From the NCBI GenBank assembly GCA_018661775.1, contig JABJHO010000014.1, positions 42,305 to 106,304 of the forward strand: a DNA stretch of 64,000 bases, read 5' to 3'. Below are positions 801-56,671 of the stretch, piece after piece. The notes under the pieces are model-generated. The model was given only the letters and a program-made list of their open reading frames with translations. It was not told where the DNA came from and made no database searches. The DNA is from Candidatus Magasanikiibacteriota bacterium (GTDB taxonomy: Bacteria; Patescibacteriota; Patescibacteriia; Magasanikbacterales; UBA922). Each line of letters starts with the position of its first letter. The stretch's first letter is position 1. A program made the translations under genes and the position numbers.

Positions 801-1247
801 TTAGTTTTGGGTTATAGAAACTATTCTTTTGTTGTCTTTTGTGTGTTCTATAGAAATCTCTTTATAGGGTGTATCTTTTATGAGTGGATAGATTTTTTCT
901 GGCCATTCCACAAGAGAGAGTGTTTTTTTGTCAAAAAGAAATTCTTCGATCCCTATATTTCTCAAGGTCTGAACATCTTCTGCACGGTAGGTATCTATGT
1001 GGACTAACTGAGAAATACCTTTTTGTGTAGTATTCACAGGATATACCTGCATGTATGTGAATGTTGGGCTTGTGATAACATCTTGTACACCAAGCCCTTT
1101 TGCTATACCTTTTGCGAGGGTTGTTTTTCCTGCACCAAGATCACCTTTAAGAAGAATAATGTCGCCCCCCATGCATTGTGAAGCTAAAGATTCACCAAAA
1201 TGAAGCATGGCGATCTCTGTGGCTATACTATGTTTTTCAGATTTCAT
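801..1247 (-). CDS. tsaE: tRNA t6A37 biosynthesis P-loop ATPase TsaE
   Basis: 148 aa. Walker A GDLGAGKTT followed by GIAKGLG and SPTF(T/V) motifs typical of TsaE/YjeE. Confidence 0.8.
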   Translation of the reverse strand: MKSEKHSIATEIAMLHFGESLASQCMGGDIILLKGDLGAGKTTLAKGIAKGLGVQDVITSPTFTYMQVYPVNTTQKGISQLVHIDTYRAEDVQTLRNIGIEEFLFDKKTLSLVEWPEKIYPLIKDTPYKEISIEHTKDNKRIVSITQN

Positions 1248-1256
1248 GAGAATATA

Positions 1257-2513
1257 TTATACGTTTTTTGTTTGGTCAGTATACAGAGGGAAATTTTTTG
1301 TAAGAGCCATAACGTCTTCCTTTATTTCTTTGAGCGTAGCTTCTTCTGTGTGATGAGTAATGGCTCGGTCAATAAGATCTGCAATAATGCCCATTTCTTT
1401 TTCTTTCATACCACGTGTTGTAAGTGCAGGGGTGCCAAGTCGTATACCAGATGGGTTAAATGGAGACCTGGTATCGTCTGGAATCATATTTTTGTTTACG
1501 GTAATACTGGCTTTGTCGAGTGCTTCTTCTGCATCTTTTCCTGTGAGACTTTTTGATGTTACGTCAATAAGGAGTAGGTGATTGTCGGTTCCACCAAAAC
1601 ATAAGTCATACTTCTTGGCTTGAAATGCTTCTTCTAGTATTTTTGTGTTTGCCTTAATCTGTTTGGCATATTGCTTAAACTCTGGCTCAAGTGCTTCTTT
1701 AAATGCGACTGCTTTGGCTGCAATATTATTTTCGTGCGGACCACCTTGTAGTCCAGGAAACACGGCCCTATCTATCTGTTTTGCAAATTCTTTTTTACAC
1801 ATGATCATGCCACCACGTGGCCCACGTAGTGTTTTGTGTGTGGTGGTGGTTACAATATCAAAAATTGGCACAGGATTGTTCATTTCTCCACCAGCAATAA
1901 GCCCGGCAATGTGTGCAATATCGGCCATAGTCATTGCACCAACTTCATTGGCAATATCTTGTATTTTGCTATATGCAATTTCTCTTGAATAGGCTGAATA
2001 GCCAACTAAAATAAGTTTCGGCTTGTGTTCGTGGGCCATTTTTCTGAGATTTTCTAGGTCTATTTGTCCGTTGGCATCAGTTTTGTATCGTTCAAAGTGA
2101 AATACCTGTGTCATGTGCGTTACCGGGTGACCATGTGTGAGATGGCCCCCATGAGACAAGTCCATACCCAGAACCGTGTCACCTGGTTTGAGTACCGCAA
2201 AATACGCAGCAATATTGGCAGGTGCACCAGACAGTGGTTGAACATTGACATGCTCTGCACCAAAAAGTTGTTTTGCACGATCTATTGCAAGTTGCTCAAT
2301 GGTATCCACATGTTCACATCCACCGTAATATCGCTTGCCTGGATACCCTTCGGCATATTTGTTTGTTAATACTGAGCCCAGCGCTTCAAGAACGGCTGGT
2401 GAGACAAAATTTTCTGAAGGAATCATTTCCAACCCAGTTTCTTGTCGGTTGAGTTCTTTGTGTATCGCTGTGTGTGTATCAATATCAAACTGTGCTAGTG
2501 ATATGTTATTCAT
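1257..2513 (-). CDS. glyA: serine hydroxymethyltransferase
   Basis: 418 aa. ELIASENF-type N-terminus (MIPSENFVSPAV), YAEGYPGKRYYGGCE, HLTHG and PLP-lysine region. Confidence 0.95.
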   Translation of the reverse strand: MNNISLAQFDIDTHTAIHKELNRQETGLEMIPSENFVSPAVLEALGSVLTNKYAEGYPGKRYYGGCEHVDTIEQLAIDRAKQLFGAEHVNVQPLSGAPANIAAYFAVLKPGDTVLGMDLSHGGHLTHGHPVTHMTQVFHFERYKTDANGQIDLENLRKMAHEHKPKLILVGYSAYSREIAYSKIQDIANEVGAMTMADIAHIAGLIAGGEMNNPVPIFDIVTTTTHKTLRGPRGGMIMCKKEFAKQIDRAVFPGLQGGPHENNIAAKAVAFKEALEPEFKQYAKQIKANTKILEEAFQAKKYDLCFGGTDNHLLLIDVTSKSLTGKDAEEALDKASITVNKNMIPDDTRSPFNPSGIRLGTPALTTRGMKEKEMGIIADLIDRAITHHTEEATLKEIKEDVMALTKNFPLYTDQTKNV

Positions 2514-2548: not shown

Positions 2549-4252
2549 TTATAACTTTTTTATCATATATGTGCCAACTTTTCTGTAACCAAGTTTTCTA
2601 TAATACCCACGAACACCAACACCCGAGATTACCGCACTTTTTTGTATTCCTGCGTTTTGTATTATTTCTTCGGCCACTTTCATGAGTTTTTTACCAAACC
2701 CTTTGTGTTGCGATGCCTGTTGTCTTTTTTCTCCAATTTTTACGAGCTGACCGTACACATGAAGTTCACGAATAAATGCACAGTGTGAAATTTCTGGGAT
2801 GATTTGTACAACATCTTTACAATGCGCTTTACTAAGCCATACATGTTGTTCTTTTTCCTTTTTGCCGATGTTGTGCGGGATACGGAGTCGTAGGAATCCA
2901 TACACAGCTATACGTTTTGGATCCTCAAGCGTAATAAAGTATTCTGTGCCACCTACTGTTGAGTATGTGTCTACAAAGAGCTGTGGTATCGTGTTTTTTG
3001 GTATATTGTCTTGCTGTCTTGAAATCTCTCTGCACCGCAAGCAGACACATCGCGCATTAGTGTTGTGTAGCTCTTTTGTGAGAGATTCTCGTAGGTTGGT
3101 TATACTGTTTCCGTCTCTAATTTCGTTAGATGGGATATCACGAATAAGTCGAGAAATTCTACAGTATCGTGGTGTAGCTTTTTTCATTGCAAGTAGTGCT
3201 GCAAACAATGCTTTTTCTCCGTATGATTTGTATCTTCCTTCCTTAAACCATGCATAGAGTTCAGCGCTTTCAATGACGGTGTTTGGATAAATCTTTACCA
3301 TGTCTGGGCAAAGTGCTGGATCAGAAAATAGTGATTTGTACATGGTTACATCGTGTTCTGGCGTGGTTCCTGGTAGGTCTGGCATAAAATGGAGATCAAC
3401 TTTGAACCCTGCACAGCGAAGCATATACATTGCTTTCCTGAATTCATCCACAGAGTGCCCACGCTTAATCAGTGATAAAATTGCATCATCTGGCGCCTGA
3501 AGACCAAGCTCTATTCTTGTGCATCCCTGTTTTCGCATGTGGTAGAGTGTTTTTGGTGTGATACAGTCTGGTCTTGTTTCAAGTGTAATTCCTATTATCC
3601 TATGTTTTGCATACTCATTGTACCGTTGTTCTTTTTCTATGCGTTGTGTCAACTCCTCAAGTGGCCGCTTTTCCCAGTACAACTCTTTTGTGGGGGGTAT
3701 TTCTTTTCTTCGTGTGAGGTTGTTGCATGCATTAAAAGACTCCATAATATACCAGTATTGGTATTTTAAGGTATAGGCATTCCATGTACCACCTTTTGTG
3801 ATGTATTCAATTTTATCTACCGGATGCCCATTCTTCTCAAGCATTTCAATCCTTTTTTGCATTAGAAGGTATGGGTTGAAATCGAGCTTGAGTGAGCGAG
3901 CTGCAGCAGGTTCTGAAGCAATATAGCTTTTTGGCATGCGTACTTCTGTTGGGCAGTAGACACACTTGCCTGGGCAAGCATATGGTTTTACTAGTGAAGT
4001 GATTACGGCAATCCCTGATGTACTTCGTATACCAGCTTTCATACATAATTGCTCTAATGCTCTATTTTGTACTACTTTCTTGTCTTTTACCAATTTCTTG
4101 TAGACACCAAGTATGGCCCTGTTTGAGGGTTGTGATATGTGAAGTGCACTACACTCCTTTCTTCGTATATCATCAAACTCACCTTTTGTTTTGGGCTTTT
4201 TTTGAATAATGGCATGTATGATCTGTGTAATGTGTTGTGTTGTTTCAGACAT
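2549..4252 (-). CDS. Elp3-family tRNA uridine34 carboxymethyl-modifying enzyme (radical SAM + C-terminal GNAT acetyltransferase)
   Basis: 567 aa. Radical SAM cysteine cluster CPGKCVYCP, TRPDC elongator region, C-terminal GNAT (HVYGQLV...GFGKKLM...QNAGI). Architecture identical to archaeal and Dehalococcoides Elp3. Confidence 0.85.
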   Translation of the reverse strand: MSETTQHITQIIHAIIQKKPKTKGEFDDIRRKECSALHISQPSNRAILGVYKKLVKDKKVVQNRALEQLCMKAGIRSTSGIAVITSLVKPYACPGKCVYCPTEVRMPKSYIASEPAAARSLKLDFNPYLLMQKRIEMLEKNGHPVDKIEYITKGGTWNAYTLKYQYWYIMESFNACNNLTRRKEIPPTKELYWEKRPLEELTQRIEKEQRYNEYAKHRIIGITLETRPDCITPKTLYHMRKQGCTRIELGLQAPDDAILSLIKRGHSVDEFRKAMYMLRCAGFKVDLHFMPDLPGTTPEHDVTMYKSLFSDPALCPDMVKIYPNTVIESAELYAWFKEGRYKSYGEKALFAALLAMKKATPRYCRISRLIRDIPSNEIRDGNSITNLRESLTKELHNTNARCVCLRCREISRQQDNIPKNTIPQLFVDTYSTVGGTEYFITLEDPKRIAVYGFLRLRIPHNIGKKEKEQHVWLSKAHCKDVVQIIPEISHCAFIRELHVYGQLVKIGEKRQQASQHKGFGKKLMKVAEEIIQNAGIQKSAVISGVGVRGYYRKLGYRKVGTYMIKKL

Positions 4253-5008: not shown

Positions 5009-5893
5009 TTATTTTCCTGAAATAATACAGGTGGTTGGAGTGGTAATACTCCAACCACTTTTTTTTGCTTTTATGAGCCCTGCAACACTTAATGCTTCAT
5101 TTGGTGTCACGGACTCTTGCAATTCATCTTCTAGTATTTTCTGTGCAGCCGCTATGTCTTCGTCGCTCACTATCCAGCCACTTCCCTTTGTTGTGTTCAC
5201 TATTTCTGTCACATTACTTTTTCTGTGTGCAATACGATCTCCGATGCACGTTGCAAGAGATTCTTTGGTTGGGGTAAAGTCATGGTCAAAATGTTTTGCG
5301 ATTGGGTAACATGCTGTGGTTTGTACAACATGTACTTGGGTCGGTAAGGAGTTGTGTGTAATGTATTCTCCGATACCTTGTGCGGTGGTACCAGAAGATG
5401 TGGCGATAAATATGGCACCCATATCGTTGTGTTGAGTAATCTCTCTTGCTAAGGGGTAGTATGATCGCGGCGCTAATCCATCGGTTGATTGTCGGAGATA
5501 TGCTACCCCAGCCTCTTTTCCGGCCATAAAAGCATTTTGTTTTGGCTGATCCACCTGTGTAATTGTAATATTTCTGTCGGTGGCAAGATGTGTGAGTGTG
5601 TCTTTTTTTTGCTGAGGTATTCTTTTACCAATATACACACCAAGCGAAAGCAGGTTATTTGGATGTTTGGTATTATGTTCTTTAATTGCTAAAATAGCTG
5701 CAATAGCAGCATTTCCGGTTGATGATATGGCAAACTTTTTCGTATCGTTTTGTGTATATTCCCGGTGTATCATTTCTGGAATGACCCGTCCTTTGTGTGA
5801 TTGGTATGGGCTAAGATCCTCTCTTTTAAGAAAAAGAGACGGGATGTTGAGTTGTTTTGCTAATTCTGGATGTGAAGATTGTGGAGTATTCAT
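5009..5893 (-). CDS. PLP-dependent enzyme, tryptophan-synthase-beta (fold type II) superfamily, specific reaction unknown
   Basis: 294 aa. LKREDLSPYQSHKGR resembles the PALP lysine motif (SFKDR), and SSGTT replaces the glycine-rich phosphate loop. Too diverged to assign a reaction. Confidence 0.45.
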   Translation of the reverse strand: MNTPQSSHPELAKQLNIPSLFLKREDLSPYQSHKGRVIPEMIHREYTQNDTKKFAISSTGNAAIAAILAIKEHNTKHPNNLLSLGVYIGKRIPQQKKDTLTHLATDRNITITQVDQPKQNAFMAGKEAGVAYLRQSTDGLAPRSYYPLAREITQHNDMGAIFIATSSGTTAQGIGEYITHNSLPTQVHVVQTTACYPIAKHFDHDFTPTKESLATCIGDRIAHRKSNVTEIVNTTKGSGWIVSDEDIAAAQKILEDELQESVTPNEALSVAGLIKAKKSGWSITTPTTCIISGK

Positions 5894-5976: not shown

Positions 5977-6141
5977 ATGAATCTTACCTGTATTGAGTGT
6001 AAAAATCAAGTTGATCTATCATCGTATTCTGACCTTGCTATGGACAGTGTGGTTGAGTGTCAGACGTGTGGCATAACATTGCTTGTGACGAGTATCGACG
6101 ATAACACCGTGTCTGTTGAAATAATGGACGAGGGAAAATAG
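5977..6141 (+). CDS. small Cys4 zinc-ribbon protein, LysW-like amino-group carrier candidate (Trm112-like alternative)
   Basis: CIEC-x18-CQTCGITLLV followed by acidic tail (DDNTVSVEIMDEG). Pattern matches LysW CPECG...CxDCGAELEV...acidic C-terminus. Tool ORF starts at 5911. Small ORF, may not be expressed. Confidence 0.3.
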   Translation: MNLTCIECKNQVDLSSYSDLAMDSVVECQTCGITLLVTSIDDNTVSVEIMDEGK

Positions 6142-6142
6142 A

Positions 6143-7537
6143 TTAGGTTATTGCTTTGCACACCATTTCTATCATACCCCGAAAACCGTGAGACCCAAGG
6201 AAGACTATTACGTCTTCTTTTTTGGTATGTTCAATAAGGTGTGTCACAAGTTCATTATCGTCTTCTATGTATTTTGTGTTTGGGTGTGTGGTCTCAATCA
6301 TGTCGGATAATGCTTTCCCATCCATGATTTCTGGTGTATTTGGCCCTTGTTTAACCGCGCTTAACCGAGGAATAATAACACTGTCTGCATGTGCAAATGC
6401 ATGAGCGTATTGCGGAACTGCTTCTTTATTTCGGTTTCCGGTGTTTGGTTCGTAAATGGCAATAATCTTGCCTGTATATATAGACCGCAATGTAGCAAGT
6501 GTTGCAGCTGCTTTTTCTGGAGAATGCGCAATATCATCAAACACGGTTATATTGTTTTCACACCGTTTTTCTAGTCGTCGTCTCATGCCCAAAAAAGTGC
6601 GTATGGATTGTGTGATGTTTTGTGGTTGTATACCAAGTTCACTAGCCATAGCAAATGCACCGCAAATATTTTCTACCATATATGTTCCAAGTAGTGGTGA
6701 GGTGATACTGTACGTAGAACTGTTATGGATTATGTCAAAATGAAGGCCATTTTTTGTACTAGTTATGTTGGTGTAGGAATACTCATTTTCTCCATCTTTT
6801 CCATAAAATACTACACGAGATTGAGATTGTTTTGCATATTCTTTTACATTTTTTCCATCTTTGCATGCAACAATAAGGCCATTTTTTGGCACAAGAGAAA
6901 CGAGGTGCTCAAATTGCTTCATGTATAATGCTTCTGTTGGGTACAGGTCTGCGTGGTCCCAAGAAATTGAAGTAAGCAGTAAATGAGTGGGGGAGTACAA
7001 CATAAACTTTGGTCGAGCATCCCATCGAGCTGTTTTATATTCATCTCCTTCAAGAACCGAATATGTACCATCAGTTATTGCTGCTGACGGGAAATTATGT
7101 GTAGCAAGTCCACCAAACATGTAGCTTGGCATATACTCATTTTCTTTGAGTATCCAAGACACTAAGGCAGATGTAGTTGTTTTTCCAAAGTTTCCGGCAC
7201 ACACAATAGAATGTTCTTTAACGAGAAATTCTGCGACAAATTCTGGATACGATTTGTATGCAATGTTGTTTTCTTGTACGTAGAGAAATTCCGGATTGGT
7301 GGAAGACGCGACATTTCCCACAATTACCAGATCAGGATTACCATGTTTGGTCATTTTTTCTACGTGCCAACCAGGGTAGTAGGTAATTCCGGCATTTTTG
7401 AGATGAGTAGAAACAGGCGGGTAAAACCCTTTGTCACTGCCAGTAACGGTATATCCTGTTTTGTGGAGCGCAATGGCTAGGGCGCTCATGGCTACGCCAC
7501 AAATACCTATAAAATGGATATGTTCGGTGTTGTTCAT
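6143..7537 (-). CDS. mpl: Mur ligase, Mpl-type (UDP-MurNAc:L-Ala-gamma-D-Glu-DAP murein peptide ligase) or MurC-like
   Basis: 464 aa, co-linear with E. coli Mpl: HFIGICG, GSDKGFYPPVST, PDLVIVGN, GNFGKTTT, EGDEY, DDIAHSP, YEPNTGNR. Confidence 0.8.
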   Translation of the reverse strand: MNNTEHIHFIGICGVAMSALAIALHKTGYTVTGSDKGFYPPVSTHLKNAGITYYPGWHVEKMTKHGNPDLVIVGNVASSTNPEFLYVQENNIAYKSYPEFVAEFLVKEHSIVCAGNFGKTTTSALVSWILKENEYMPSYMFGGLATHNFPSAAITDGTYSVLEGDEYKTARWDARPKFMLYSPTHLLLTSISWDHADLYPTEALYMKQFEHLVSLVPKNGLIVACKDGKNVKEYAKQSQSRVVFYGKDGENEYSYTNITSTKNGLHFDIIHNSSTYSITSPLLGTYMVENICGAFAMASELGIQPQNITQSIRTFLGMRRRLEKRCENNITVFDDIAHSPEKAAATLATLRSIYTGKIIAIYEPNTGNRNKEAVPQYAHAFAHADSVIIPRLSAVKQGPNTPEIMDGKALSDMIETTHPNTKYIEDDNELVTHLIEHTKKEDVIVFLGSHGFRGMIEMVCKAIT

Positions 7538-7540
7538 AAT

Positions 7541-8233
7541 CTATAGTGTATTATCCAGTATATGCTTAAGCTCTTGCAAATCACCACTCCAATTCTTTCC
7601 GTCAAACCACTCGAGCCCGCTAAACTGTAATTTATACGTGTCACTTGGTCTTTGTGCTGAACCTAAATATATATATTTTTTTCCTGTTTCTTTTGCATAT
7701 AGTATGGCTTTGAGCATCATGCCCATACCAATGCTTTTGTTGGGAAAATCTAATGGATAAAAAGGATAGGAATAGTGAAGTATGTCAGTATTTTCATAGC
7801 AGACTGCATACCCAACTACGTCATCACTTTTTGTATACAGAAGGAGCATGGTAAAGTTTGTTTCTTCTGCGTTTGTAAGACATGATTTTACCGCATTGGC
7901 AGAAAATGTCCCTTTGCCAAACTTTTTTTCATAAAAATCTTTTGCACATTTTCCAATAGTCCAGTGGTAATCAGTATACGGAATAGGGTGGCTGGAAAGA
8001 GTAATATCTTCTGTTTTCCGTAAAATTCTTCTGTTTTCGCTTGTTAATACAAACGTATTCAAATCTATTCGTATACTTCGTGTTTGGTCCATTGCGCCTT
8101 TTCCTCGGCGGGTAAACACAAAACCATCGCTATATTTTTGGGTAATATTGTTTGAAACAGTATGTGTAAGTGTTTCTTGTTTCCAGGAAAAATAATCATT
8201 CATAGAATTATTGTAGTGCAATCCATAGTCCAA
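7541..8233 (-). CDS. Bpt/ATE-family aminoacyl-tRNA--protein transferase-like protein (ATE_N without Cys + ATE_C GNAT-like domain)
   Basis: 230 aa. N-terminal FTRRGKG...IRIDL...S.NRRILRK resembles ATE_N. C-terminal VGYAVCY...SIGMGMMLKAILYAKETGKKYIYLGS...YKLQF..LE matches the ATE_C consensus (SavY..SLG...YlYLGY...YK..F.P.E). Confidence 0.55.
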   Translation of the reverse strand: MDYGLHYNNSMNDYFSWKQETLTHTVSNNITQKYSDGFVFTRRGKGAMDQTRSIRIDLNTFVLTSENRRILRKTEDITLSSHPIPYTDYHWTIGKCAKDFYEKKFGKGTFSANAVKSCLTNAEETNFTMLLLYTKSDDVVGYAVCYENTDILHYSYPFYPLDFPNKSIGMGMMLKAILYAKETGKKYIYLGSAQRPSDTYKLQFSGLEWFDGKNWSGDLQELKHILDNTL

Positions 8234-9356
8234 GTAATACGACCATTGCGTGGATAATCCAAAAACGCATCACTGTTTTTTCTTCACTCCAACCGCGCAT
8301 TTCAAAATGGTGATGTAGTGGTGCCATTGCAAAAATACGTCTTCCCAATATGTATCGCCCAAAAATTTGTATAATGACACTGGCAAGTTCTACATAAAAA
8401 ATAAAACCAAGCAGCGGAAGAAGTAGCATGTGATTAATGACAATGGTGTTTATGGCAAGAAGTGACCCAAGACCAAGAGAGCCAACATCACCCATTTGGA
8501 ACCGCGCAGGCTTAATATTGAAATACGTGTACGTAAGCAACGCACCGGTTGTGGTCGCATTGAGTATGGCAATTTCTCCATATCCTTCTATCCAGCTTAA
8601 TATTGTGAGAGCAGAAAATGTAATAATGAGTGCTCCTCCTGCCAATCCATCCATACCGTCTGCCATATTTACTGCATTGGCAGTTGCCACGACAAAGAAT
8701 ATAACAAAGGGAATAATAAGCCAGCTAATGTCTATTGTTCCATCAAACGGAATGGCTATGTTTTGCCAATGCTTTCCAAGTTTTGCATAAATCCACCAGG
8801 CAGCAATGCCACCCGCAATACATTCAGTGAGTAATCTTTCGTGAACATGGAGCCCTTTTCCTGGATGTGAACCCAGCCAAAGTGACGTACGTTTAAAAAT
8901 TGACCACGGAAGGGTAATAATAAGCCAGATTCTATACCATATATTTTTGTGTACCTTAATGAGTGTAAAAATCTGCTTCAATTTTCTGTTTCGTCGTTTT
9001 TTCTCATTAAAAATATTGAGCCAGTCATCTACGCCACCAAGGATTGCCGAAAGAATCATAACCCCAACAGGTACCCAGGTAAAACTTCTCTCCCAGTTAA
9101 AGAGTATGGTAATAACCGCAACAGTTATAATGACGAGCAGTCCACCCATAATTGGTACGCCAGCTTTACTTTTTCGTGCGCCCATGGCAAGTGATGCGTC
9201 ATAATCTGGGTTTCTTACAATATTATGTTTATACAAAAAAGCAATCAGGAGTGGAGCCCAAATAAAAGATGCTATTGTGGCAAGTGCGCCAAAACCTATG
9301 GCGGTCTGTAATATGTGTATTGTGTCTGTAGGTATTATCATAATACTGTTCATCAT
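8208..9356 (-). CDS. mraY: phospho-N-acetylmuramoyl-pentapeptide transferase
   Basis: 382 aa polytopic membrane protein with NAVNMADGMDGLAGG and APLHHHFE MraY signatures. Confidence 0.85.
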   Translation of the reverse strand: MMNSIMIIPTDTIHILQTAIGFGALATIASFIWAPLLIAFLYKHNIVRNPDYDASLAMGARKSKAGVPIMGGLLVIITVAVITILFNWERSFTWVPVGVMILSAILGGVDDWLNIFNEKKRRNRKLKQIFTLIKVHKNIWYRIWLIITLPWSIFKRTSLWLGSHPGKGLHVHERLLTECIAGGIAAWWIYAKLGKHWQNIAIPFDGTIDISWLIIPFVIFFVVATANAVNMADGMDGLAGGALIITFSALTILSWIEGYGEIAILNATTTGALLTYTYFNIKPARFQMGDVGSLGLGSLLAINTIVINHMLLLPLLGFIFYVELASVIIQIFGRYILGRRIFAMAPLHHHFEMRGWSEEKTVMRFWIIHAMVVLLGLWIALQ

Positions 9357-9399: not shown

Positions 9400-10176
9400 T
9401 TATGTTATTAATCTGCGAATTTCTAAGATTTTTGCGCTTTTTGCACGGCCAAATGTTTCATTTGCTTCACCTATTTTTTCATGCTCTTGCCAGGTCTGCT
9501 GTGATAGATCTTTTTTTGTGTCTGTAACGGTAATGTTTCCCTGTCTAATACCATGATTGTATTTTCCATCTGCAAGCCACGCAAGACTGTGTGTATAATG
9601 AATTATTTTCGGTGCACCACCTTCGTAGTCTACTTGGTGCACAATAAGTATATGGTCAAGATCATGTCGTTTTCCTGTATCAAGCATAATAATGCAATCT
9701 CCAGGTTCTATAGTGTTAAGAGAGATCGTTTGGCTGTTTTTGTTGTCTGCCAAAACACGTACATTTGTATTTTCAATGGTGCGGAATTTTCTCACAAGCC
9801 GTCTCAATAGATTGTTGGTTTTTGGAAATGACAAACGTGTGTGCAATGGTTTTGTTGTTTGTGCAATCGTTTGGGCGTTGAGAATGTAATACGCAAGCCC
9901 CGAGCAGTCAATACCAATAGCATGATCTACAAGAAATTTTTTTACCTCTGTCTGAGAAAGTGTCGTAAGGTCAATATGTTTTTTTCTTGCAATAATTTCT
10001 ATTTCTTGCACAATATCTTCTACGGAACCTTTTCCTAAGTGCACACGCAAACCTGCCCGAACCTTTGTCTTTTTATTGTTCATGTACGGGCAAGCAACTG
10101 TGTGTTTTCCAATGGGCATGTGCAGATATGCTTCAATAATATCCATTGCTGGTTTCACTATTTTTTTTGTTGTCAT
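9400..10176 (-). CDS. cytoplasmic NlpC/P60-like (papain-fold Cys/His) hydrolase candidate
   Basis: 258 aa, no signal peptide. GIDCSGLAYYIL matches the NlpC/P60 catalytic Cys motif, and a downstream DHILIVHQV region supplies a candidate catalytic His. Confidence 0.4.
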   Translation of the reverse strand: MTTKKIVKPAMDIIEAYLHMPIGKHTVACPYMNNKKTKVRAGLRVHLGKGSVEDIVQEIEIIARKKHIDLTTLSQTEVKKFLVDHAIGIDCSGLAYYILNAQTIAQTTKPLHTRLSFPKTNNLLRRLVRKFRTIENTNVRVLADNKNSQTISLNTIEPGDCIIMLDTGKRHDLDHILIVHQVDYEGGAPKIIHYTHSLAWLADGKYNHGIRQGNITVTDTKKDLSQQTWQEHEKIGEANETFGRAKSAKILEIRRLIT

Positions 10177-11435
10177 AAAGCGTTTTCTATAATGGTTACA
10201 ATCTTTTTTCCGAGTGCATTATATACACCATGTTTTGTCATAATGCTTTCTTTAGACTGAATGCGTAACAGGTCAGACCCTAGTGTGGTGGTTGTGTACG
10301 GGATAACAGAGAGCCCAGCTTGCTCAAGTGCTTTTTTTGTTTGCGTTACGTCTATGTCTTGTGCGTCTTTTGTGAGCCTGAGAACAAGTTGTGCCCCACG
10401 TGTTACAGGAACAAGTTTGTGATCTTTTGTTTCAAGGTTTGCCAGTGCTGCGACATGCGCTTCAAACGTTGTCATGAGATTTTTTACCTGTTTTGCTATG
10501 GATTGTTGCTGTAAGTGTGATTCAAAAATAACAGAAGCTGGTTGCCTTGCATTAATCTCCAAAAGATATACGTTTCCTGTTTCTTCTTCTACGATAATGT
10601 CTATCCCAAAAGCCCCGCGCCATCCATCGTGTTGCATTTTTTTTCCAACTGCATGGGCTATTTCTTTACACTTCGCCTGTTGATCATATGAGAGTATGTC
10701 TTTTGGAAGACCCCAGTCATTGCCGATGGTGGCAAAAGGTTGGTCGGTAAAAGGAGAGAGCCCAGTAATTTGGTAACTCAATGATCCTGTGTGGATCGCA
10801 TCTTTTGAGACAACGCCGTTGCAAGTAAACGTGGGGCCGTTAATATAGGCCGACACTTTTACCGGTCTTTCGGGAAATGTTTTTTGGAGTTCTTGTAGTT
10901 GTATTTCGCTGTCTATTAATACTGTTCCACTTCCGGTGTGTCCCTGGTTAAATTGCAATACAAATGGTTCATAATTCCATGCAATGTTTTTGCATACATC
11001 TATGTGGTGAGGGGGAAGATGTGTAGTCATTGTACCAAGCCACGCAACTTGTGAAATTTTCTCTTCTATGTTGCTTGCTAGGTTGGTAAGCGGGTTAAGT
11101 AGTGGGATATTATGTGTCTTGCAAATCCGCTCTATTTTTTTTGTAGGTTTGTATACCATAATACCACCAAATGCGTTTTCACCACATTCTTTGGTTTTTT
11201 TTGCAATGTACGCGAGTGATTTTGGATGCTCAAGGAGTTGCCAAGAATCCAAAAGTGTAGTAGTGTCAATGAGTACAATGTGTGACCTTTCTTGGGCATA
11301 TGATTTGGCAAACTCGGTCACATTTGAGATAATAGAAAAATCAGAGATAGACATGTCCATCCCCGATGCTCGCTCAAAAGAGCGATTTACATATATAATG
11401 TGGTGATTTTTAAGCCACGTGAGTAATTTTTCCAT
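10173..11435 (-). CDS. ATP-grasp carboxylate-amine/peptide ligase (Ddl-like or side-chain ligase candidate)
   Basis: Core ATP-grasp signature GAFGIDIIVEEETGNVYLLEINARQ with a pre-ATP-grasp N-domain. Start taken at ATG 11435 (MEKLLTW) because the longer ORF overlaps murB upstream. The 4-nt overlap with the downstream gene implies an operon. Confidence 0.6.
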   Translation of the reverse strand: MEKLLTWLKNHHIIYVNRSFERASGMDMSISDFSIISNVTEFAKSYAQERSHIVLIDTTTLLDSWQLLEHPKSLAYIAKKTKECGENAFGGIMVYKPTKKIERICKTHNIPLLNPLTNLASNIEEKISQVAWLGTMTTHLPPHHIDVCKNIAWNYEPFVLQFNQGHTGSGTVLIDSEIQLQELQKTFPERPVKVSAYINGPTFTCNGVVSKDAIHTGSLSYQITGLSPFTDQPFATIGNDWGLPKDILSYDQQAKCKEIAHAVGKKMQHDGWRGAFGIDIIVEEETGNVYLLEINARQPASVIFESHLQQQSIAKQVKNLMTTFEAHVAALANLETKDHKLVPVTRGAQLVLRLTKDAQDIDVTQTKKALEQAGLSVIPYTTTTLGSDLLRIQSKESIMTKHGVYNALGKKIVTIIENAL

Positions 11436-11468: not shown

Positions 11469-12449
11469 TTGCAACCTTTGATATATTTTATGGATCCATT
11501 TTATACACAACTCAAAACCTACGGAAAAGTGCGATGTAATGAATCTTTGGCAAAGCATATTACGTATAAGATTGGTGGCCCTGCCAAGTATTTTGTGATT
11601 GTAAAAGATATGTCCCATCTCCAAGCGCTTTTGCAGTTTATTGACGGAGAAGGGGTAAAACGTATTATCTTGGGTGGAGGAAGTAATATATTATTTCCAG
11701 ATGAAGGTTTTGATGGGGTGGTAATACAGATTATTGATAAGACGTTCTCGATTTCTGGTCCCAAGGTGGAGGCAGTTGCAAGTGCACTGATGAAAGATAT
11801 TTCTGAGGCAACTGTTGCCGCAGGTTTGGCGGGTTTTGTTTGGGCAATTGGTGTTCCTGGAACTATAGCAGGTGCGTTGCGAGGTAATGCTGCGTATAAT
11901 GGGGTTGCAATGGGGGATGCTGTGTCCAGTGTGGAGGTGTACAGAGATGGAGAGGTGGTGCTGTTATCAAACCATGATTGTGTGTTTGGTCCAAAAGATT
12001 CAGTGTTTAAGCATAACAATGATGTGATTTTGCGTATTTGGCTTGCATTAAAAAAAGGAGAGAAGCAAAAGATTGCTCAAGAGGCAATGGAGAATATTTC
12101 ATATAGACAACGCACTCAGCCAGAAGGTAAAGGTTCAGCGGGTTGTGTATTTAAGAACATAGTTGTTGAAGAAAAAGATGTGGATAATTTTTTGGCAAAA
12201 TTTAATGATAAAAAAATACAGGAATGTATTACAAAATATCATAAAATTCCTGTTGGCCGTTTAATTGAATTACTTGGACTAAAGGGGACTGTTTCTGGGA
12301 ATGCACAGATTTCTGAGGTGCATGGTAATTTTGTGATTAATTTGGGCGGTGCAAGTGCAAAAGATGTGTGCATCTTAATTGAACTTATACGGGAAAACGT
12401 GTACAATACCTATGGGTTTGAATTAGAGGAGGAAATTCAAATTGTTTAA
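11469..12449 (+). CDS. murB: UDP-N-acetylenolpyruvoylglucosamine reductase
   Basis: FAD-binding N-terminus (ITYKIGGPAKYF), GGGSNIL motif, ~320 aa. TTG start at 11469 or ATG at 11490. Confidence 0.85.
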   Translation: MQPLIYFMDPFYTQLKTYGKVRCNESLAKHITYKIGGPAKYFVIVKDMSHLQALLQFIDGEGVKRIILGGGSNILFPDEGFDGVVIQIIDKTFSISGPKVEAVASALMKDISEATVAAGLAGFVWAIGVPGTIAGALRGNAAYNGVAMGDAVSSVEVYRDGEVVLLSNHDCVFGPKDSVFKHNNDVILRIWLALKKGEKQKIAQEAMENISYRQRTQPEGKGSAGCVFKNIVVEEKDVDNFLAKFNDKKIQECITKYHKIPVGRLIELLGLKGTVSGNAQISEVHGNFVINLGGASAKDVCILIELIRENVYNTYGFELEEEIQIV

Positions 12450-15817: not shown

Positions 15818-17854
15818 ATGAACAATCAAGAAGGGACAAAGCGCGTAAGAATGCGTTGGGGAATGGTAAGTATTACTATTTGTTTTTTGGCTATGCTCGG
15901 GTTTATATTCCCGAAGTATACAAATGTTGCTATTAACAATATTAATTCTTTGGCATATCTAGGATTACCAAACATATCGGAAGAGTCTTTTCGGTTGGGT
16001 CTAGATTTGCAAGGCGGTGCACATTTAATATATGAGGCAGACGTACAACACGTGGCAATCGAAGATCGTGCAACTGCAGTAGAAGGTGTGCGAGATGCGG
16101 TTGAGCGCCGAGTAAACGGGACGGGAGTTTCTGAACCAAATGTCCAAACAGCGCGTGTGGGTGAGGCATATAGGCTTATTGTTGATCTTCCAGGTATTGA
16201 AAATGTAAATGAAGCAATAAAACTTATAGGGGAGACACCGGTGCTAGAATTTAAGGAAGAAAATGATGTACCATCAAGGGAGCTTAATGAAGAAGAGAGA
16301 GAGTTAATAACACAAACAAATAGTACAGCAAAATCACGTTCAGAGGAGATAGCAGCCCGAGTGGCAGGTGGTGAGTCTTTTGAAGAGCTTGTTTCTGAGC
16401 TTTCTGAAGACACGATCACAAAAAATAATGGAGGGAGTTTGGGAAATGTTGAGGCAGGTCTGAGTATAACAGGCCCACTTTATGATTGGGCGAAGACTCA
16501 TGTGGATGGGGACATTTCTGAAACACCAATAGAAACAGAGCTGGGATATCACGTTGTAAAGCGCGGGAAAGATGGTGAGTCAAAAGAAAAAGTTTCAGCG
16601 AGCCATATACTAATCTGTTATTTTGGTGCACAGGGTTGTGAAGATGAAACATACACAAAAGAGTCGGCACTAGAAAAAGCACAAGAACTTTTTACTCAAG
16701 CAAATGCTGAAAATTTTGCTGATTTAGCAAAAGAATTTTCTACTGGACCAAGTAAGGGTGCGGGTGGGGACCTTGGTTCTTTTGGGCGCGGTATGATGAT
16801 ACCTGCGTTTGAAGAGGTAGTGTTTTCTGCAGAAGTGGGACAAATTGTAGGGCCAGTTGAAACTGATTTTGGGTATCATGTGATTTATAAGACCGATGTG
16901 GAGGAGGTTGCAACGTATGGCCTTGCTCATATTATGAGTAAAAAGCTAACAGAAAGAGAAGTTCTCCCACCGCAGGATTCATGGAAATCAACAGAGCTTT
17001 CCGGAAAACAACTTGAGCGGGCGGACGTTGCTATTGATCCGCAAACAGGTGCCGTACAAGTTTCTCTTGTTTTTGATAAGGAAGGAAAAAAACTATTTGA
17101 AGATATTACACGAAGAAACCTTAATAAACCTGTTGCAATCTTTTTAGATGGCTCTCCTATTAGTATACCAACAGTTCAGGCCGTCATCGGTGGAGGGGAG
17201 GCGGTGATTACTGGATCATTTACCATTCCAGAAGCAAAACTTTTATCTCAAAGACTTAATACGGGTGCATTACCTGTTCCTATTACTCTTGTATCCCAGC
17301 AGGCTATTGGTGCAAGTTTGGGGGCCGAATCACTGGTAAAGAGTTTGCATGCCGGAATAATTGCTATTATATTGGTAATGCTCTTTATGGTTCTGTATTA
17401 TAGATTACCAGGGGTACTGGCAGTTATTTCTTTAAGCATATATATTGTTGCTGCACTTGCTATTTTTAAATTAATAGGCGTGACATTGACACTAGCTGGA
17501 ATTGCTGGATTTATCCTCTCTATTGGTATGGCGGTTGATGCAAATGTACTGATTTTTGAAAGAATGAAGGAGGAGCTGCGCGAAGGGAAGAGTTTGAAAG
17601 TTGCGGTGGAAGAAGGGTTTGTGCGTGCGTGGACATCTATACGAGATGGAAATATTTCAACACTTATTACCTGTGTATTGTTGGTTGGGTTTGGTGCAAG
17701 TTTTGTTCAGGGGTTTGCTGCAACATTGTCAATTGGTATTTTATTGAGCATGTTTTCGGCGATTACCATTACACGATTGTTTTTGCGTGCAATAGTGCCA
17801 CTATTTTCTCGGTACGGCAATAGACTCTTTTTAGGATTTACTGAAAAAAAATAA
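15818..17854 (+). CDS. secD: protein-export membrane protein SecD with inserted tandem parvulin-type PPIase domains
   Basis: LGLDLQGG P1-domain start. Canonical P1 head (AIFLDG...ISIPTV...ITGSF) and six-TM C-terminus. Residues ~150-345 carry two parvulin signatures (GGSLG...ELGYHVV and SHILI...GGDLGSFGRGMMIPAFEEVVF...FGYHVIYK). Confidence 0.9.
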   Translation: MNNQEGTKRVRMRWGMVSITICFLAMLGFIFPKYTNVAINNINSLAYLGLPNISEESFRLGLDLQGGAHLIYEADVQHVAIEDRATAVEGVRDAVERRVNGTGVSEPNVQTARVGEAYRLIVDLPGIENVNEAIKLIGETPVLEFKEENDVPSRELNEEERELITQTNSTAKSRSEEIAARVAGGESFEELVSELSEDTITKNNGGSLGNVEAGLSITGPLYDWAKTHVDGDISETPIETELGYHVVKRGKDGESKEKVSASHILICYFGAQGCEDETYTKESALEKAQELFTQANAENFADLAKEFSTGPSKGAGGDLGSFGRGMMIPAFEEVVFSAEVGQIVGPVETDFGYHVIYKTDVEEVATYGLAHIMSKKLTEREVLPPQDSWKSTELSGKQLERADVAIDPQTGAVQVSLVFDKEGKKLFEDITRRNLNKPVAIFLDGSPISIPTVQAVIGGGEAVITGSFTIPEAKLLSQRLNTGALPVPITLVSQQAIGASLGAESLVKSLHAGIIAIILVMLFMVLYYRLPGVLAVISLSIYIVAALAIFKLIGVTLTLAGIAGFILSIGMAVDANVLIFERMKEELREGKSLKVAVEEGFVRAWTSIRDGNISTLITCVLLVGFGASFVQGFAATLSIGILLSMFSAITITRLFLRAIVPLFSRYGNRLFLGFTEKK

Positions 17855-44884: not shown

Positions 44885-47254
44885 ATGAATACATTAAAAA
44901 AAGCTAACATCCCAACAGTTATTGTCGTCTTTGGTGCGACAGGAGATTTGATGGAGAAAAAAATTGCTCCATCTCTTTTGCATTTGTACAAAAATGGTAA
45001 GTTGCCAACTCAGTTTAAGATTGTCGGCGTTGCCAGGAAAAGTAATAGCGATGGTCAGTTTCAGAAATTAGTTGGGGATCATTTAAAAAAACATTCTAAG
45101 CAACATCCATCAAAAGAAAAGTTTAAAAAGTTTTTGGATTATTTTACTTATCAATCAGGCCAGTTTCAAGAACCCAAGACTTATAGCGAGCTTAGTAAAA
45201 AACTTAAGCAGATAGATGATGAGTGGGGAGTATGTACTAATAAGCTTTTTTATCTAGCAGTCCCGCCAAAGTTTTATCAAACTATATTTAATAATTTATC
45301 AGCTTCTGGACTGACTAAGCCTTGTAGTGAGGAAGAGGGTTGGACTAGAGTATTAGTTGAAAAGCCATTTGGCAGTGATTTAAAAACAGCCAAAGAATTA
45401 GAAGAGGTGTTGGGTAAGCTCTTTAGAGAGGAACAGATTTTTAGAATTGATCATTACTTGGCTAAAGAAATGCTGCAAAATATTTTGGCTGTTAGGTTTT
45501 CTAATAATTTATTTGAACAAACTTTTAATAATCGGTTTATTGATAGCATTGAATTATACTTACATGAAAAGAAAGGGGCCGAAGGTCGCGGTAGTTTTTA
45601 TGATAGCGTTGGAACCCTAAAAGATGTTGGCCAAAATCATTTGTTGCAGATGTTGGCTCTTGTCACTATGGATATGCCACAAAGTTATAATGCTAAACAT
45701 ATTCGTGACAAGAGGTATGAATTAATGAAACATTTAATTCCATTGAAAAAATCCGAGATGAGCACCAATACTTTTAGAGCTCAATACGAAGGATATACTC
45801 AGGTAGAGGGCGTTAATGCAAAATCAAAAACAGAAACATTTTTTAAACTGCAGTGCTTCTTAAATCATCCAAGGTGGCGAGATGTACCTATTACTATTGA
45901 AAGTGGTAAGGGTATGGCTGCACCTAAAAAAGGTATTGCTTTGAATTTAAAACACACTATGCCATGTTTGTGCCCTAAAGGCTCAGAGCATTATCGTAAT
46001 AAGATAATTCTTACTATGGAACCAGAAGAGGGTATTACAATTGAATTCTGGGCCAAGAAACCGGGATTTCAGTGGCAGATAGAAAAGAAAGAGTTGAAGT
46101 CTTTTTATCGTAAGAATGCCAAGCAGGCTCAGTATACAGAAGAGTATGAAAAACTTTTATTCGATTGTATTGTCGGGGATCAAACTTTATTTGTTAGCAC
46201 TAAAGAGGTCCTTGCAATGTGGAAGTTTATTGATCCAATTGTTAAAGCCTGGGAAAGTAAAATAGTGTCACTAGAAAAATATAAAAAAGGATCGAAGACT
46301 ATTTCTACTTCTGTAAAGTTTAGTTCAACTAAAGTTAAAGATGCAGGACAAATGCCTTTAGAAATTGGAATTGTTGGTCTTGGTAAAATGGGTGGTGGTC
46401 TTGCTAGGCAGTTATTAGAAAAAGGCTGGAAGATTCATGGTTATAACAGGAGCCCAGAGGAGACACGTAAATTAAAAAAAGATGGATTAATTCCAGAATT
46501 TAGCTTAGAGGATATGGTAAAGAATCTACCATCACCAAAGATTGTTTGGCTAATGGTTCCTTCTGGTAAGCCAGTTGATGAAAATATTAATAAGCTAGCA
46601 AAGCTTTTGGGTAAAGGGGATTATATTATTGATGGGGGTAATTCTTTTTTCCAAAATACTGTCAAACGATCTCGTAAAGTTACGGCTAAGAAAATTAATT
46701 TTATGGATTGTGGTGTGTCTGGAGGTCCCGAGGGAGCGCGCCACGGGGCTTGTTTGATGATTGGTGGTAAAAAAGTTGATTATGATTTCTTAAAGCCTTT
46801 GTATTCTGATTTGGCTATTCATCAAGGCGAAGAATTTTTCCCTGGTTATGGAGCTGGCCATTTTGTAAAGATGGTTCATAATGGTATTGAATATGGCATG
46901 ATGCAGTCTATTGCTGAAGGATTTGCGATTATGAGAAAATCAAAATATAAATTACACTTGCGTAAAATTGCAGAGGTTTATAACCATGGTAGTGTAATTG
47001 AATCTAGTTTGATCAATTGGATGGGAAATGCTTTTGCCTTATTTGGCGATGATTTAAAAGGTGTGTCTGGTAGAGCCTCACATAGTGGCGAAGGGCTTTG
47101 GACAACACAGGTAGCGCATTCTTTGGGAATATCCGATAAGGTTATTCACGAGTCACTAAAAGCTAGAGAGAGAAGCCAGAAAAAACCAAGTTACCAAGGT
47201 AAGATTATTCAGGCTTTAAGAAATCAGTTTGGCGGACATAATTTAAAAAAATAA
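44885..47254 (+). CDS. fused glucose-6-phosphate dehydrogenase (Zwf, N-terminal) and 6-phosphogluconate dehydrogenase-like (Gnd/YqeC-type, C-terminal)
   Basis: N-terminal GATGDL..KK dinucleotide motif, RIDHYLAKE active site. C-terminal IGIVGLGKMGGGLA Rossmann, DGGNS, GVSGGPEGA, GAGHFVKMVHNGIEYGMMQ 6PGDH motifs. Single 789-aa ORF. Confidence 0.8.
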   Translation: MNTLKKANIPTVIVVFGATGDLMEKKIAPSLLHLYKNGKLPTQFKIVGVARKSNSDGQFQKLVGDHLKKHSKQHPSKEKFKKFLDYFTYQSGQFQEPKTYSELSKKLKQIDDEWGVCTNKLFYLAVPPKFYQTIFNNLSASGLTKPCSEEEGWTRVLVEKPFGSDLKTAKELEEVLGKLFREEQIFRIDHYLAKEMLQNILAVRFSNNLFEQTFNNRFIDSIELYLHEKKGAEGRGSFYDSVGTLKDVGQNHLLQMLALVTMDMPQSYNAKHIRDKRYELMKHLIPLKKSEMSTNTFRAQYEGYTQVEGVNAKSKTETFFKLQCFLNHPRWRDVPITIESGKGMAAPKKGIALNLKHTMPCLCPKGSEHYRNKIILTMEPEEGITIEFWAKKPGFQWQIEKKELKSFYRKNAKQAQYTEEYEKLLFDCIVGDQTLFVSTKEVLAMWKFIDPIVKAWESKIVSLEKYKKGSKTISTSVKFSSTKVKDAGQMPLEIGIVGLGKMGGGLARQLLEKGWKIHGYNRSPEETRKLKKDGLIPEFSLEDMVKNLPSPKIVWLMVPSGKPVDENINKLAKLLGKGDYIIDGGNSFFQNTVKRSRKVTAKKINFMDCGVSGGPEGARHGACLMIGGKKVDYDFLKPLYSDLAIHQGEEFFPGYGAGHFVKMVHNGIEYGMMQSIAEGFAIMRKSKYKLHLRKIAEVYNHGSVIESSLINWMGNAFALFGDDLKGVSGRASHSGEGLWTTQVAHSLGISDKVIHESLKARERSQKKPSYQGKIIQALRNQFGGHNLKK

Positions 47255-51591: not shown

Positions 51592-51734
51592 GCAAAAGAG
51601 AGTTTTTTTGATTTTGCTTGTGGATAACATGAGTAAAAATATTGTACAGCACGAAAAATTGCGGTACAATGGGAAGAGGTGGGGAAAAGTGGGGATTGAG
51701 TACAATGCTTGTCTACTCATATTTCACTTTTGTT

Positions 51735-52166
51735 ATGTTTGTTGGCGAATATTCTCACAGTTTGGATACAAAAGGCCGTTTAGCCATACCTAAATTATTT
51801 AGGAGTGATCTTTTGGATGGTTTAGTGATAACACGAGGCATAGATGATTGTTTGTTTTTATACACAAAAACAGCATGGTCATCTGTGTCTGATTATATAT
51901 CACAACTTCCATTTTCAAAAGCACACGTTCGGGGTTTTGCCCGACTTATGTTGGCTGGCGCAACAAACCTTACTCTAGATAAACAGGGTAGGGTTTTGTT
52001 GCCCGAATATTTACGCATATATGCTCAGTTAGAAAAAGAGGTGGTGGTCGCAGGTTTGTGCAATCGCATTGAGATATGGAATAAAAAAGATTGGGAAGTT
52101 GCCTTGGACAGTGTGTTAACTGATAAACACAAAATAGCCGAGCAACTTGATACGTTGGGTTTATAA
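51735..52166 (+). CDS. mraZ: transcriptional regulator MraZ
   Basis: Duplicated DxKGRhxhP motifs (LDTKGRLAIP, LDKQGRVLLP). Start at ATG 51735 (MFVGEY). Confidence 0.85.
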   Translation: MFVGEYSHSLDTKGRLAIPKLFRSDLLDGLVITRGIDDCLFLYTKTAWSSVSDYISQLPFSKAHVRGFARLMLAGATNLTLDKQGRVLLPEYLRIYAQLEKEVVVAGLCNRIEIWNKKDWEVALDSVLTDKHKIAEQLDTLGL

Positions 52167-52178
52167 TTTTTTTACATT

Positions 52179-53105
52179 ATGAAACATGTTCCAGTTTTGT
52201 TAGATGAAGTGTTGGAAGTATTTGATTTGGACGCCGGACTGTCTGTATTGGATTGCACTCTTGGAGACGCTGGCCATGCCGAGGCAATGCTAGAAAGAAT
52301 TTCTCCTGGCGGTACGCTTGTTGGTATTGATGCTGATCCTGAGGCTGTTGTTCGTGCAAAGCATTTTCTTGAATCGTTTGGTGAGCAGGCTGTTGTTGTT
52401 CGAGATAATTTTTTACACATTGACACCATTATTTCTGGGCTCGGTTTTACGTGTGTTGATCGCATTCTCTTTGACCTTGGGTGGTCCAGTCCACAGTTTG
52501 CAGAAAGGGGGCGCGGGTTTAGTTTTTTACAATCAGATGAACCACTAGACATGCGTTTTTCTTCTGACGTGGGGAACCTTGAGAAACGACCAAACAAAAC
52601 AGCAGGGGAACTTGTAAACAGTGCATCACCTGATGTTCTGGTGCGTATATTTCGTGAATATGGGGAAGAAAAATTGGCCCATGAAATAGCAGGAGCTATT
52701 GTTGTACAAAGGACAAAAGAAGCTATAACTACCGTAAAACAGCTTGTGGAAATTATTTTAGAGGTGTATAGAAAAAAAACACATACCACAAAAGAGGTTC
52801 CATGGATAGGTGGGCTTCATCCGGCAACACGTGTATTTCAGGCATTGCGTATTGCGGTAAACAAAGAGTTAGAAGTGCTTGAGGGGGTGTTACCAAAAGC
52901 ATTGTCGCTACTTTGTCCTGGAGGAAGACTTGCGGTGATTTCTTTTCACTCTTTGGAGGATCGTTTGGTGAAACATTTTTTTAAATCACAAATTGGAAAA
53001 GGGTATCGGGTGCTCACAAAAAAACCCATCGTACCTTCGTCAGAAGAGTGTAAAGTAAATGTGCGCGCTCGATCAGCAAAACTTCGTGTAATTGAAAAAA
53101 TATGA
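52179..53105 (+). CDS. rsmH: 16S rRNA m4C1402 methyltransferase
   Basis: MKHVPVLLDEVL, DCTLGDAGH, GVSSPQ-like and C-terminal S-E-D motifs. 308 aa. Confidence 0.9.
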   Translation: MKHVPVLLDEVLEVFDLDAGLSVLDCTLGDAGHAEAMLERISPGGTLVGIDADPEAVVRAKHFLESFGEQAVVVRDNFLHIDTIISGLGFTCVDRILFDLGWSSPQFAERGRGFSFLQSDEPLDMRFSSDVGNLEKRPNKTAGELVNSASPDVLVRIFREYGEEKLAHEIAGAIVVQRTKEAITTVKQLVEIILEVYRKKTHTTKEVPWIGGLHPATRVFQALRIAVNKELEVLEGVLPKALSLLCPGGRLAVISFHSLEDRLVKHFFKSQIGKGYRVLTKKPIVPSSEECKVNVRARSAKLRVIEKI

Positions 53106-53413: not shown

Positions 53414-53516
53414 CTTCATGGTACAAAGTGCCTGCTTAGCCTCTTCTTATATATTCCCGTAATTGGGTTTTTTTGTTTTTTATGTTATCATACACCATAT
53501 ATATTTACGCACATAT

Positions 53517-53873: not shown

Positions 53874-53875
53874 CT

Positions 53876-56650: not shown

Positions 56651-56671
56651 GTTGTTAAGTGCTACGCTTTT

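Follow-up and report, generated by a model that had tools for sequence, protein, structure and literature searches.

A cysteine-less relative of the ATE/Bpt aminoacyl-tRNA transferases encoded among peptidoglycan genes of Patescibacteria

Aminoacyl-tRNA transferases of the GNAT type that act on the cell envelope are already known, namely FemXAB and MprF. The type of cross-link and the resistance to beta-lactams in Gram-positive pathogens depend on the Fem/MurM family, which is, to our knowledge, the only family known for peptidoglycan branching by tRNA-dependent enzymes. We know of no measurement of wall chemistry in Patescibacteria. Here we analysed a stretch of 64,000 nucleotides from a Candidatus Magasanikiibacteriota bacterium (contig JABJHO010000014.1, in the following 'the window'), in which an initial annotation had noticed a homologue of the aminoacyl-tRNA-protein transferases (ATE/Bpt) next to mraY and had suggested that a cell-envelope substrate would put this fold into a new functional context. 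Given FemXAB and MprF, an envelope-acting GNAT-type transferase is not new as such; what would be new is the ATE/Bpt branch in that place. The protein, which we call ATEL, is, judged by its sequence, best described as a distinct, unnamed, cysteine-less branch of the ATE_C superfamily that descended from ATE/Bpt, and its gene lies within a peptidoglycan operon.

The open reading frame (ORF) at 7541..8233 exists on the minus strand, and the quoted ATE_C-type motifs (KSIGMGMMLKAILYAKETGKKYIYLGSAQRPSDTYKLQFSG) were found when its translation was read. As called mechanically, the ORF starts with a TTG at 8233 and comprises 230 aa. All 29 of the 29 aligned homologues begin at the position of an internal ATG (consensus MxxYLxWK), most aligned homologues are 215-222 aa long, and none of them contains the ten residues of the TTG-initiated extension. 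We therefore place the start at ATG 8203. The corrected gene occupies 7541..8203 (minus strand) and encodes a 25-kDa protein of 220 aa, whereas the 5' extension of the mechanical ORF (8204..8233, minus strand) lies outside the gene and covers the last nucleotides of mraY together with a 4-nt spacer. That ATEL and mraY share 26 nt, as had been reported, is, on the aligned starts, an artefact of ORF calling, since 4 nt separate the mraY stop codon (8210..8208) from the start of ATEL; the close packing of the genes is genuine. At the other end, the ATEL stop codon (7543..7541) lies 3 nt ahead of the start of a ligase gene (7537). That ATEL is a genuine gene is certain, given its 1247 homologues at E<=1e-3 and the mean pLDDT of 94.3 of its AlphaFold2 model.

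ATEL matches ATE_C (PF04377) with 33.6 bits, above the gathering cut-off of 25, over residues 116-209 of the 230-aa ORF; many of its relatives score under this cut-off. The only other Pfam match was a sub-threshold one to Acetyltransf_6, and no match of ATEL to FemAB (PF02388), DUF2156, Aat (PF03588) or ATE_N (PF04376) was obtained at E<=0.1. A fold search identified ATE1 as the closest fold. This kinship was visible by fold and not by sequence search of the PDB, in which neither the ATEL protein nor the family profile retrieved ATE1, Bpt or Fem. Genuine Bpt sequences were collected as database proteins with both PF04376 and PF04377, a Pseudomonas sequence serving as bait only. Against this set, hhalign aligned the ATEL family with 88.8% probability (E 2.5e-6), residues 43-207 falling on Bpt 69-233. 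The homology to ATE/Bpt thus stands, by ATE_C, by fold and by hhalign, but regular membership does not. Seven NCBIfam 'arginyltransferase' equivalog models matched at 26-64 bits with cut-offs of 170-358 (best score 63.7 bits versus a cut-off of 170). Because ATEL has neither the ATE_N cysteine motif nor a score above the equivalog thresholds, we do not file it as a Bpt/ATE1 orthologue.

ATEL shares with Bpt and ATE1 (PF04376 plus PF04377) the ATE_C domain, the overall fold, a Tyr-Lys pair and a basic helix. In the hhalign alignment, Y190-K191 of ATEL fell on Bpt Y216-K217, which is the Y303-K304 pair of klAte1. The K304A variant of klAte1 is dead, and this lysine corresponds to Lys305, the catalytic lysine of FemX (PMC9351520). 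Likewise, the basic helix SENRRILRK (residues 55-63) aligned with Bpt RQQKRILKR, the helix by which this enzyme class binds tRNA (PMC9351520). Both the Tyr-Lys pair and the basic helix were invariant throughout the ATEL family alignment. In contrast, ATEL differs from Bpt and ATE1 in having neither an ATE_N match nor the four metal-binding cysteines. The latter (C17, C61, C64 and C67 of Bpt) were invariant in 15 genuine Bpt sequences, and their klAte1 counterparts C23, C26, C95 and C96 make a zinc finger (PMC9351520). No invariant cysteine and no match to these four was found in three ATEL-family alignments (A1, A2 and A6). On these alignments, ATEL has lost the cysteine metal site of the ATE1/Bpt family.

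The side chain of the donor amino acid is accommodated by S255, S273, E277 and Y289 in klAte1 and by A168, A185, Q189 and L201 in Bpt (PMC9351520). Their counterparts in the ATEL alignment are S145, M162, A166 and I178, a mapping that assumes a one-residue offset between the Bpt numbering of that study and the Pseudomonas sequences used here. None of these residues is acidic, which makes Arg-tRNA an improbable donor. Probable donors are small or hydrophobic L-amino acids of the Ala, Gly or Leu class.

The established envelope-acting enzymes are more distant. FemX, MurM and FemAB comprise 335-420 aa versus about 220 aa of ATEL, which has no FemAB match, no second full GNAT lobe and no coiled-coil, and hence not their two-lobed architecture; in sequence and fold it is nearer to ATE1 than to Fem. 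What it does share with FemXAB and MurM is being encoded alongside peptidoglycan precursor genes. From MprF and related aaPGS enzymes ATEL differs by having no DUF2156 match and no membrane or flippase domain; the alignment spans the C-terminal GNAT lobe alone, and the neighbours of ATEL are peptidoglycan and not lipid genes. Aat (PF03588) belongs, as ATEL presumably does, to the aminoacyl-tRNA-dependent GNAT-like transferases and is of similar size. Membership in FemAB, DUF2156 or Aat was rejected on hidden Markov model (HMM) evidence. The assignment to another GNAT family, FemAB for instance, that the initial annotation had considered therefore did not occur, with ATE_C above its cut-off.

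An exhaustive profile search across 1.84 billion representatives gave 545 family members at E<=1e-3, which stand for about as many clusters at 50% identity, and 86 at E<=1e-30; none of the representatives inspected from this search contained the Bpt cysteines. The closest relatives of ATEL are from Magasanikbacteria. A compact type is found in Patescibacteria (Magasanikbacteria, Paceibacteria, Parcubacteria and WWE3), and a type extended at the N-terminus (MKxxFSExxxDYxxYxFPY) in further uncultured lineages as well as in Bacteroidota, including Catalinimonas, Porifericola, Cyclobacteriaceae and Saprospiraceae. The kinship of both types is unambiguous (hhalign E 4e-63). In a rough neighbour-joining tree they form one clade on a long branch from Bpt. 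When the transferases were clustered by single linkage at 45% identity, nearly all of them ended up in one chain, so that lineages could not be counted in this way. Many carrier records (our loci L002, L004, L005 and others) are titled 'uncultured Gammaproteobacteria bacterium'; these labels look wrong because gene content and similarity point to Magasanikbacteria. One distant member (L085, 8001..10430) forms a protein of 809 aa together with PPDK_N (ATP-grasp) and PEP-utilizers (swivelling phosphohistidine) domains, a fused architecture that resembles enzymes of the phosphoenolpyruvate (PEP) synthase and rifampicin-phosphotransferase type.

Public databases name relatives of ATEL 'GNAT family N-acetyltransferase', 'arginyl-tRNA-protein transferase', leucyl-tRNA-protein transferase, 'N-end rule aminoacyl transferase C-terminal domain-containing protein' or 'hypothetical'. 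The ATE_C homology of the ORF is thus already implicit in automated annotations. In the literature we found no study of the family and none of a tRNA-dependent wall enzyme in Patescibacteria; nor did we find a report of the systematic embedding of this family in peptidoglycan operons or of the function that this implies.

In the window, ATEL is the fourth of five co-directional genes, which encode an ATP-grasp ligase, an NlpC/P60-like protein, MraY, ATEL and a MurC/Mpl-type ligase. The mraY gene for phospho-MurNAc-pentapeptide transferase lies directly upstream (8208..9356, minus strand; PF00953, and TIGR00445 with 190.5 bits at a cut-off of 192), and the Mur ligase gene directly downstream after the 3-nt spacer (6143..7537, minus strand; PF01225, PF08245 and PF02875). 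Conservation of this context was analysed in the 80 best species-level genomes. The mraY-adjacent position, whose conservation the initial annotation had proposed to check, proved conserved: MraY was encoded upstream of ATEL in 71 of 71 testable loci and a MurC-type ligase downstream in 69 of 70, with spacers of <=50 nt in about half of the loci. With the sister group as seed (alignment A5), a scan of metagenomes yielded 80 further, more diverse loci; a scan with the single protein P0149 gave no match.

Across all loci, a peptidoglycan gene was located within 1.5 kb in 151 of 166 testable cases, a count whose weight for a wall role is lessened by the dominance of order A, from one Patescibacteria clade. 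At least four gene orders were found (X being the family gene). Order A is MraY-X-MurC and in most cases also includes the ATP-grasp, NlpC/P60-like, LysW-like and PALP genes. Order B is a canonical division and cell wall (dcw) cluster, mraZ-rsmH-ftsI-murE-X-murC-murB-murA-murF-mraY, in about ten loci such as L103. Order C consists of an Alr-X pair, often overlapping (L087 and nine more, of which L169 was annotated), in surroundings that contain no other wall gene and are not like those of the candidate phyla radiation (CPR). In order D (L083), LysA and X overlap by 4 nt, and ahead of this pair lie genes for an S13 DD-carboxypeptidase, an M14 peptidase, an aminotransferase, an MR_MLE epimerase and an S66 LD-carboxypeptidase. 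In addition, one family gene of Saprospiraceae is divergent from mreBCD-pbp2. As far as the gene layout tells, translation of ATEL is coupled to that of wall-peptide genes, in arrangements that are independent of each other. Where the neighbours share a theme, it is constantly that of the stem-peptide amino acids: alanine for MurC and Alr, the diamino acid for MurE and LysA, and the finished UDP-MurNAc-peptide for MraY. In L103, a glycyl-tRNA synthetase gene (1034..2335) precedes mraZ by about 1 kb, and a single ORF of 286 aa separates the two; its proximity to the dcw cluster may be fortuitous or may point to the donor.

We infer the donor type, the acceptor and the cell-wall link of ATEL, its envelope substrate being drawn from gene context. 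Some role in wall-peptide metabolism is rather probable. More specifically, ATEL could be a tRNA-dependent aminoacyl transferase that acts on a peptidoglycan stem-peptide precursor, that is, an analogue of FemX/MurM on an ATE/Bpt scaffold; we regard this as quite possible, though short of probable. Of the readings considered we find it the best supported, because the elements for peptide-bond formation from aminoacyl-tRNA are kept, because the acceptor-side module is unlike that of protein taggers, and because the wall-gene arrangements are independent. The basic helix SENRRILRK would bind the acceptor arm of the charged tRNA, and Tyr190-Lys191 would steady the tetrahedral intermediate while the free amine of the precursor attacks the aminoacyl ester. 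This amine would most likely be the side-chain amine of the diamino acid at position 3 of the UDP-MurNAc-peptide, just before the MraY step, and the product would be a branched stem peptide such as is made elsewhere by FemX/MurM. ATEL, presumably soluble and of single-domain size, would then act in stem-peptide synthesis and not in the N-terminal tagging of proteins.

Several observations weigh against this proposal. Gene context is circumstantial, and unrelated genes (for serine hydroxymethyltransferase, an Elp3-like protein and a methyltransferase) are likewise syntenic among the species-level genomes, which is why the more distant loci were examined. No peptidoglycan neighbour was found at L090, L091, L092, L084, L086 or the Bacteroidota locus L088. 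Among the loci without a wall neighbour are WWE3 and two other compact-type ones, where aminoacyl-tRNA synthetase or TGT genes lie a few kb off, and Catalinimonas; in L086 a class IIb aminoacyl-tRNA synthetase gene adjoins. The MurE of order B (L103) passes the NCBIfam threshold as the meso-diaminopimelate type, and walls of this type are usually cross-linked directly, without a tRNA-added bridge. The GxG loop K156-x-x-G159-x-G161 keeps the use of acyl-CoA formally possible. If this loop, the weak Acetyltransf_6 match and the NCBI name 'GNAT family N-acetyltransferase' of relatives were taken at face value, ATEL would be an acyl-CoA-dependent GNAT N-acyltransferase that needs no tRNA, which we consider barely credible. 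Finally, the N-terminal 42 residues of ATEL align to ATE_N, at low confidence only, with the invariant R32 placed opposite the second Arg of GFRRSG. In ATE1 an Arg recognises the acidic N-terminal residue of the substrate (PMC9351520); R32 may have kept this function, which would suit a Bpt-like protein substrate.

Such a substrate is at the core of the main rival explanation, namely that ATEL is a divergent local Bpt that tags N-terminal Asp or Glu of proteins, its place in the operon being accidental or due to co-regulation with growth. Besides R32, the sequence and fold homology to Bpt/ATE1, the hydrophobic donor pocket, which is like that of Bpt, the arginyl- and leucyl-tRNA-protein transferase names of relatives and the several lineages without any peptidoglycan context are consistent with it, as is a Clp-type ATPase encoded within the window. 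However, the ATE_N cysteine motif is missing from ATEL, and its NCBIfam scores are <=64 bits versus cut-offs of >=170. The family gene sits inside peptidoglycan operons and not with aat/clpS-type genes, and chance poorly explains a tight coupling to four peptidoglycan-peptide genes in four gene orders. Nor was a ClpS seen beside the Clp-type ATPase: no ClpS-like ORF was found ahead of it, and none turned up elsewhere in the window or in the fetched loci. A tblastn search with an E. coli ClpS against all 1.48 Mb of fetched DNA gave noise, which carries little weight, as this DNA covers local regions only. We therefore consider protein tagging by ATEL unlikely.

The remaining genes of the operon raise a different possibility. 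The first one encodes an ATP-grasp ligase (10173..11435, minus strand; PF02655 with 24.4 bits) with a probable start at ATG 11435; the mechanical ORF extends to 11624. The protein has weak NCBIfam matches to PRK06524 and to an archaeal pseudomurein Ddl-like model and no sequence relative in the PDB. The second gene (9400..10176, minus strand) overlaps the first by 4 nt and encodes a putative cytoplasmic cysteine peptidase or amidase, NlpC/P60-like (weak PF00877 match of 18.3 bits) and without a signal peptide, in whose translation the catalytic DCSGL motif and the H motif were seen directly. Both genes are syntenic with ATEL in most loci, and in L081 (4102..6423) they form a single fusion protein of 746 aa. 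A similar pairing of ligase and amidase is known from glutathionylspermidine synthetase/amidase. The 802-aa protein encoded upstream of the family gene in L082 turned out to be unrelated to the ATP-grasp or NlpC/P60 proteins.

Convergent with the Mur ligase gene lies a gene for a LysW-like zinc-ribbon protein of 54 aa (5977..6141, plus strand; PF21344 with 30.7 bits at a cut-off of 27). This ORF occurs at the same site and in the same orientation in 67 fetched Patescibacteria loci. Its C-terminus is (I/V)VDEGK in nearly all of the 60 matches listed and IMDEGK in the window, whereas true LysW ends with EDWGE. The protein may be a carrier for the neighbouring ATP-grasp ligase; nothing on a LysW-like protein at this site was found in the literature. 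Beyond it follows a gene for a pyridoxal phosphate (PLP)-dependent enzyme of the PALP fold (5009..5893, minus strand; PF00291 with 92 bits), which is downstream in 60 of the 80 genome loci and also in many metagenome loci; the enzyme has no sequence relative in the PDB at E<=1e-3. On the other side, murB (11469..12449, plus strand; PF02873 and PF01565; start codon uncertain) is divergent from the operon and syntenic. A scan of the operon for promoters and terminators gave no more sites than shuffled sequence. The Rfam scan revealed two tRNA-Ser genes only, and thus no dedicated non-proteinogenic tRNA is encoded nearby.

Together with the ATP-grasp and NlpC/P60 proteins, the LysW-like carrier and the PLP enzyme, ATEL could produce or alter a metabolite derived from amino acids, or an intermediate bound to a carrier, rather than act on the wall precursor. 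All these genes are syntenic with ATEL in Patescibacteria, and both the L081 fusion and that of one relative to PPDK_N and PEP-utilizers domains fit such a pathway. Yet the MurE-X-MurC, Alr-X and LysA-X groups have no accessory genes, which are therefore not constant partners of ATEL, and we deem this explanation very unlikely.

A further alternative involves the downstream ligase. The initial annotation had placed ATEL between mraY and mpl; mraY and a Mur ligase are indeed there, but the mpl label is unproven. In NCBIfam the ligase scored 272.6 bits for mpl and 272.0 for murC, both under the cut-off, and as far as such scores tell it is not assignable to either. Among solved structures, the Mpl 3hn7 is closest (181.6 bits) and a MurC comes next (143.8). 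If the enzyme were Mpl-like, ATEL might use Ala-tRNA to attach L-Ala to free Glu or to a gamma-Glu-diamino acid at the alpha-amine, and the ligase would then load the peptide onto UDP-MurNAc. Alongside MurC/MurD, this would be a tRNA-dependent route that serves for bypass or salvage. The alpha-amine of Asp/Glu is what ATE/Bpt enzymes recognise, the ligase is almost always directly coupled to ATEL, and its proximity to the peptide-ligating Mpl 3hn7 and the NCBIfam tie are in line with this route. So are the cytoplasmic NlpC/P60 peptidase and ATP-grasp ligase in the same operon, the L-Ala-D/L-Glu-epimerase-type enzyme, LdcA and M14 peptidase encoded with one distant relative, and the fact that murD does not follow mraY in L103 or L128. 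On the other hand, the counterpart ligase of the canonical dcw cluster (L103) is clearly MurC-like (murC 269 versus mpl 218), the Alr and LysA neighbours would be left unexplained, and the route is without precedent. We judge it to be distinctly unlikely. A broader version, in which ATEL, an Mpl-like ligase and the ATP-grasp, NlpC/P60 and LysW-like proteins form a non-canonical wall-peptide pathway that partly replaces ATP-dependent MurC/MurD in Patescibacteria, is a long shot.

The remaining part of the window is typical of Patescibacteria (CPR), with genes for SecA, SecDF, DnaG, RpoD, pilus components, LigA, GatA and pentose-phosphate enzymes as well as mraZ-rsmH-ftsL. In the latter region (51642..57742, plus strand), ftsI/murE/murF do not come next after mraZ, rsmH and an ftsL-like gene; their place is taken by a membrane ORF and by genes for the Clp-type AAA+ ATPase of 955 aa and a second GT4 (WecA/MraY-like) transferase. 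The N-terminal 400 or so residues of this ATPase have no Pfam match and contain Cys-rich and hydrophobic stretches. In SecD (15818..17854, plus strand), the periplasmic region is interrupted by two inserted stretches of PpiC-type peptidyl-prolyl isomerase (Rotamase). A 789-aa fusion (44885..47254, plus strand) combines glucose-6-phosphate dehydrogenase and 6-phosphogluconate dehydrogenase domains. Furthermore, an Elp3-like radical S-adenosylmethionine protein with a C-terminal GNAT domain is encoded at 2549..4252 (minus strand) and is syntenic in many Patescibacteria loci.

The context of ATEL touches on cell-wall synthesis, tRNA biology and the CPR bacteria, and should be of interest to specialists in each of these fields. 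If ATEL indeed acts on a stem-peptide precursor, then protein-tagging and wall-building aminoacyl-tRNA transferases would have swapped roles more than once, and the stem peptide of Patescibacteria would be non-canonical. A conserved, probably important and so far unnamed family of about 545 clusters would thereby gain a function.
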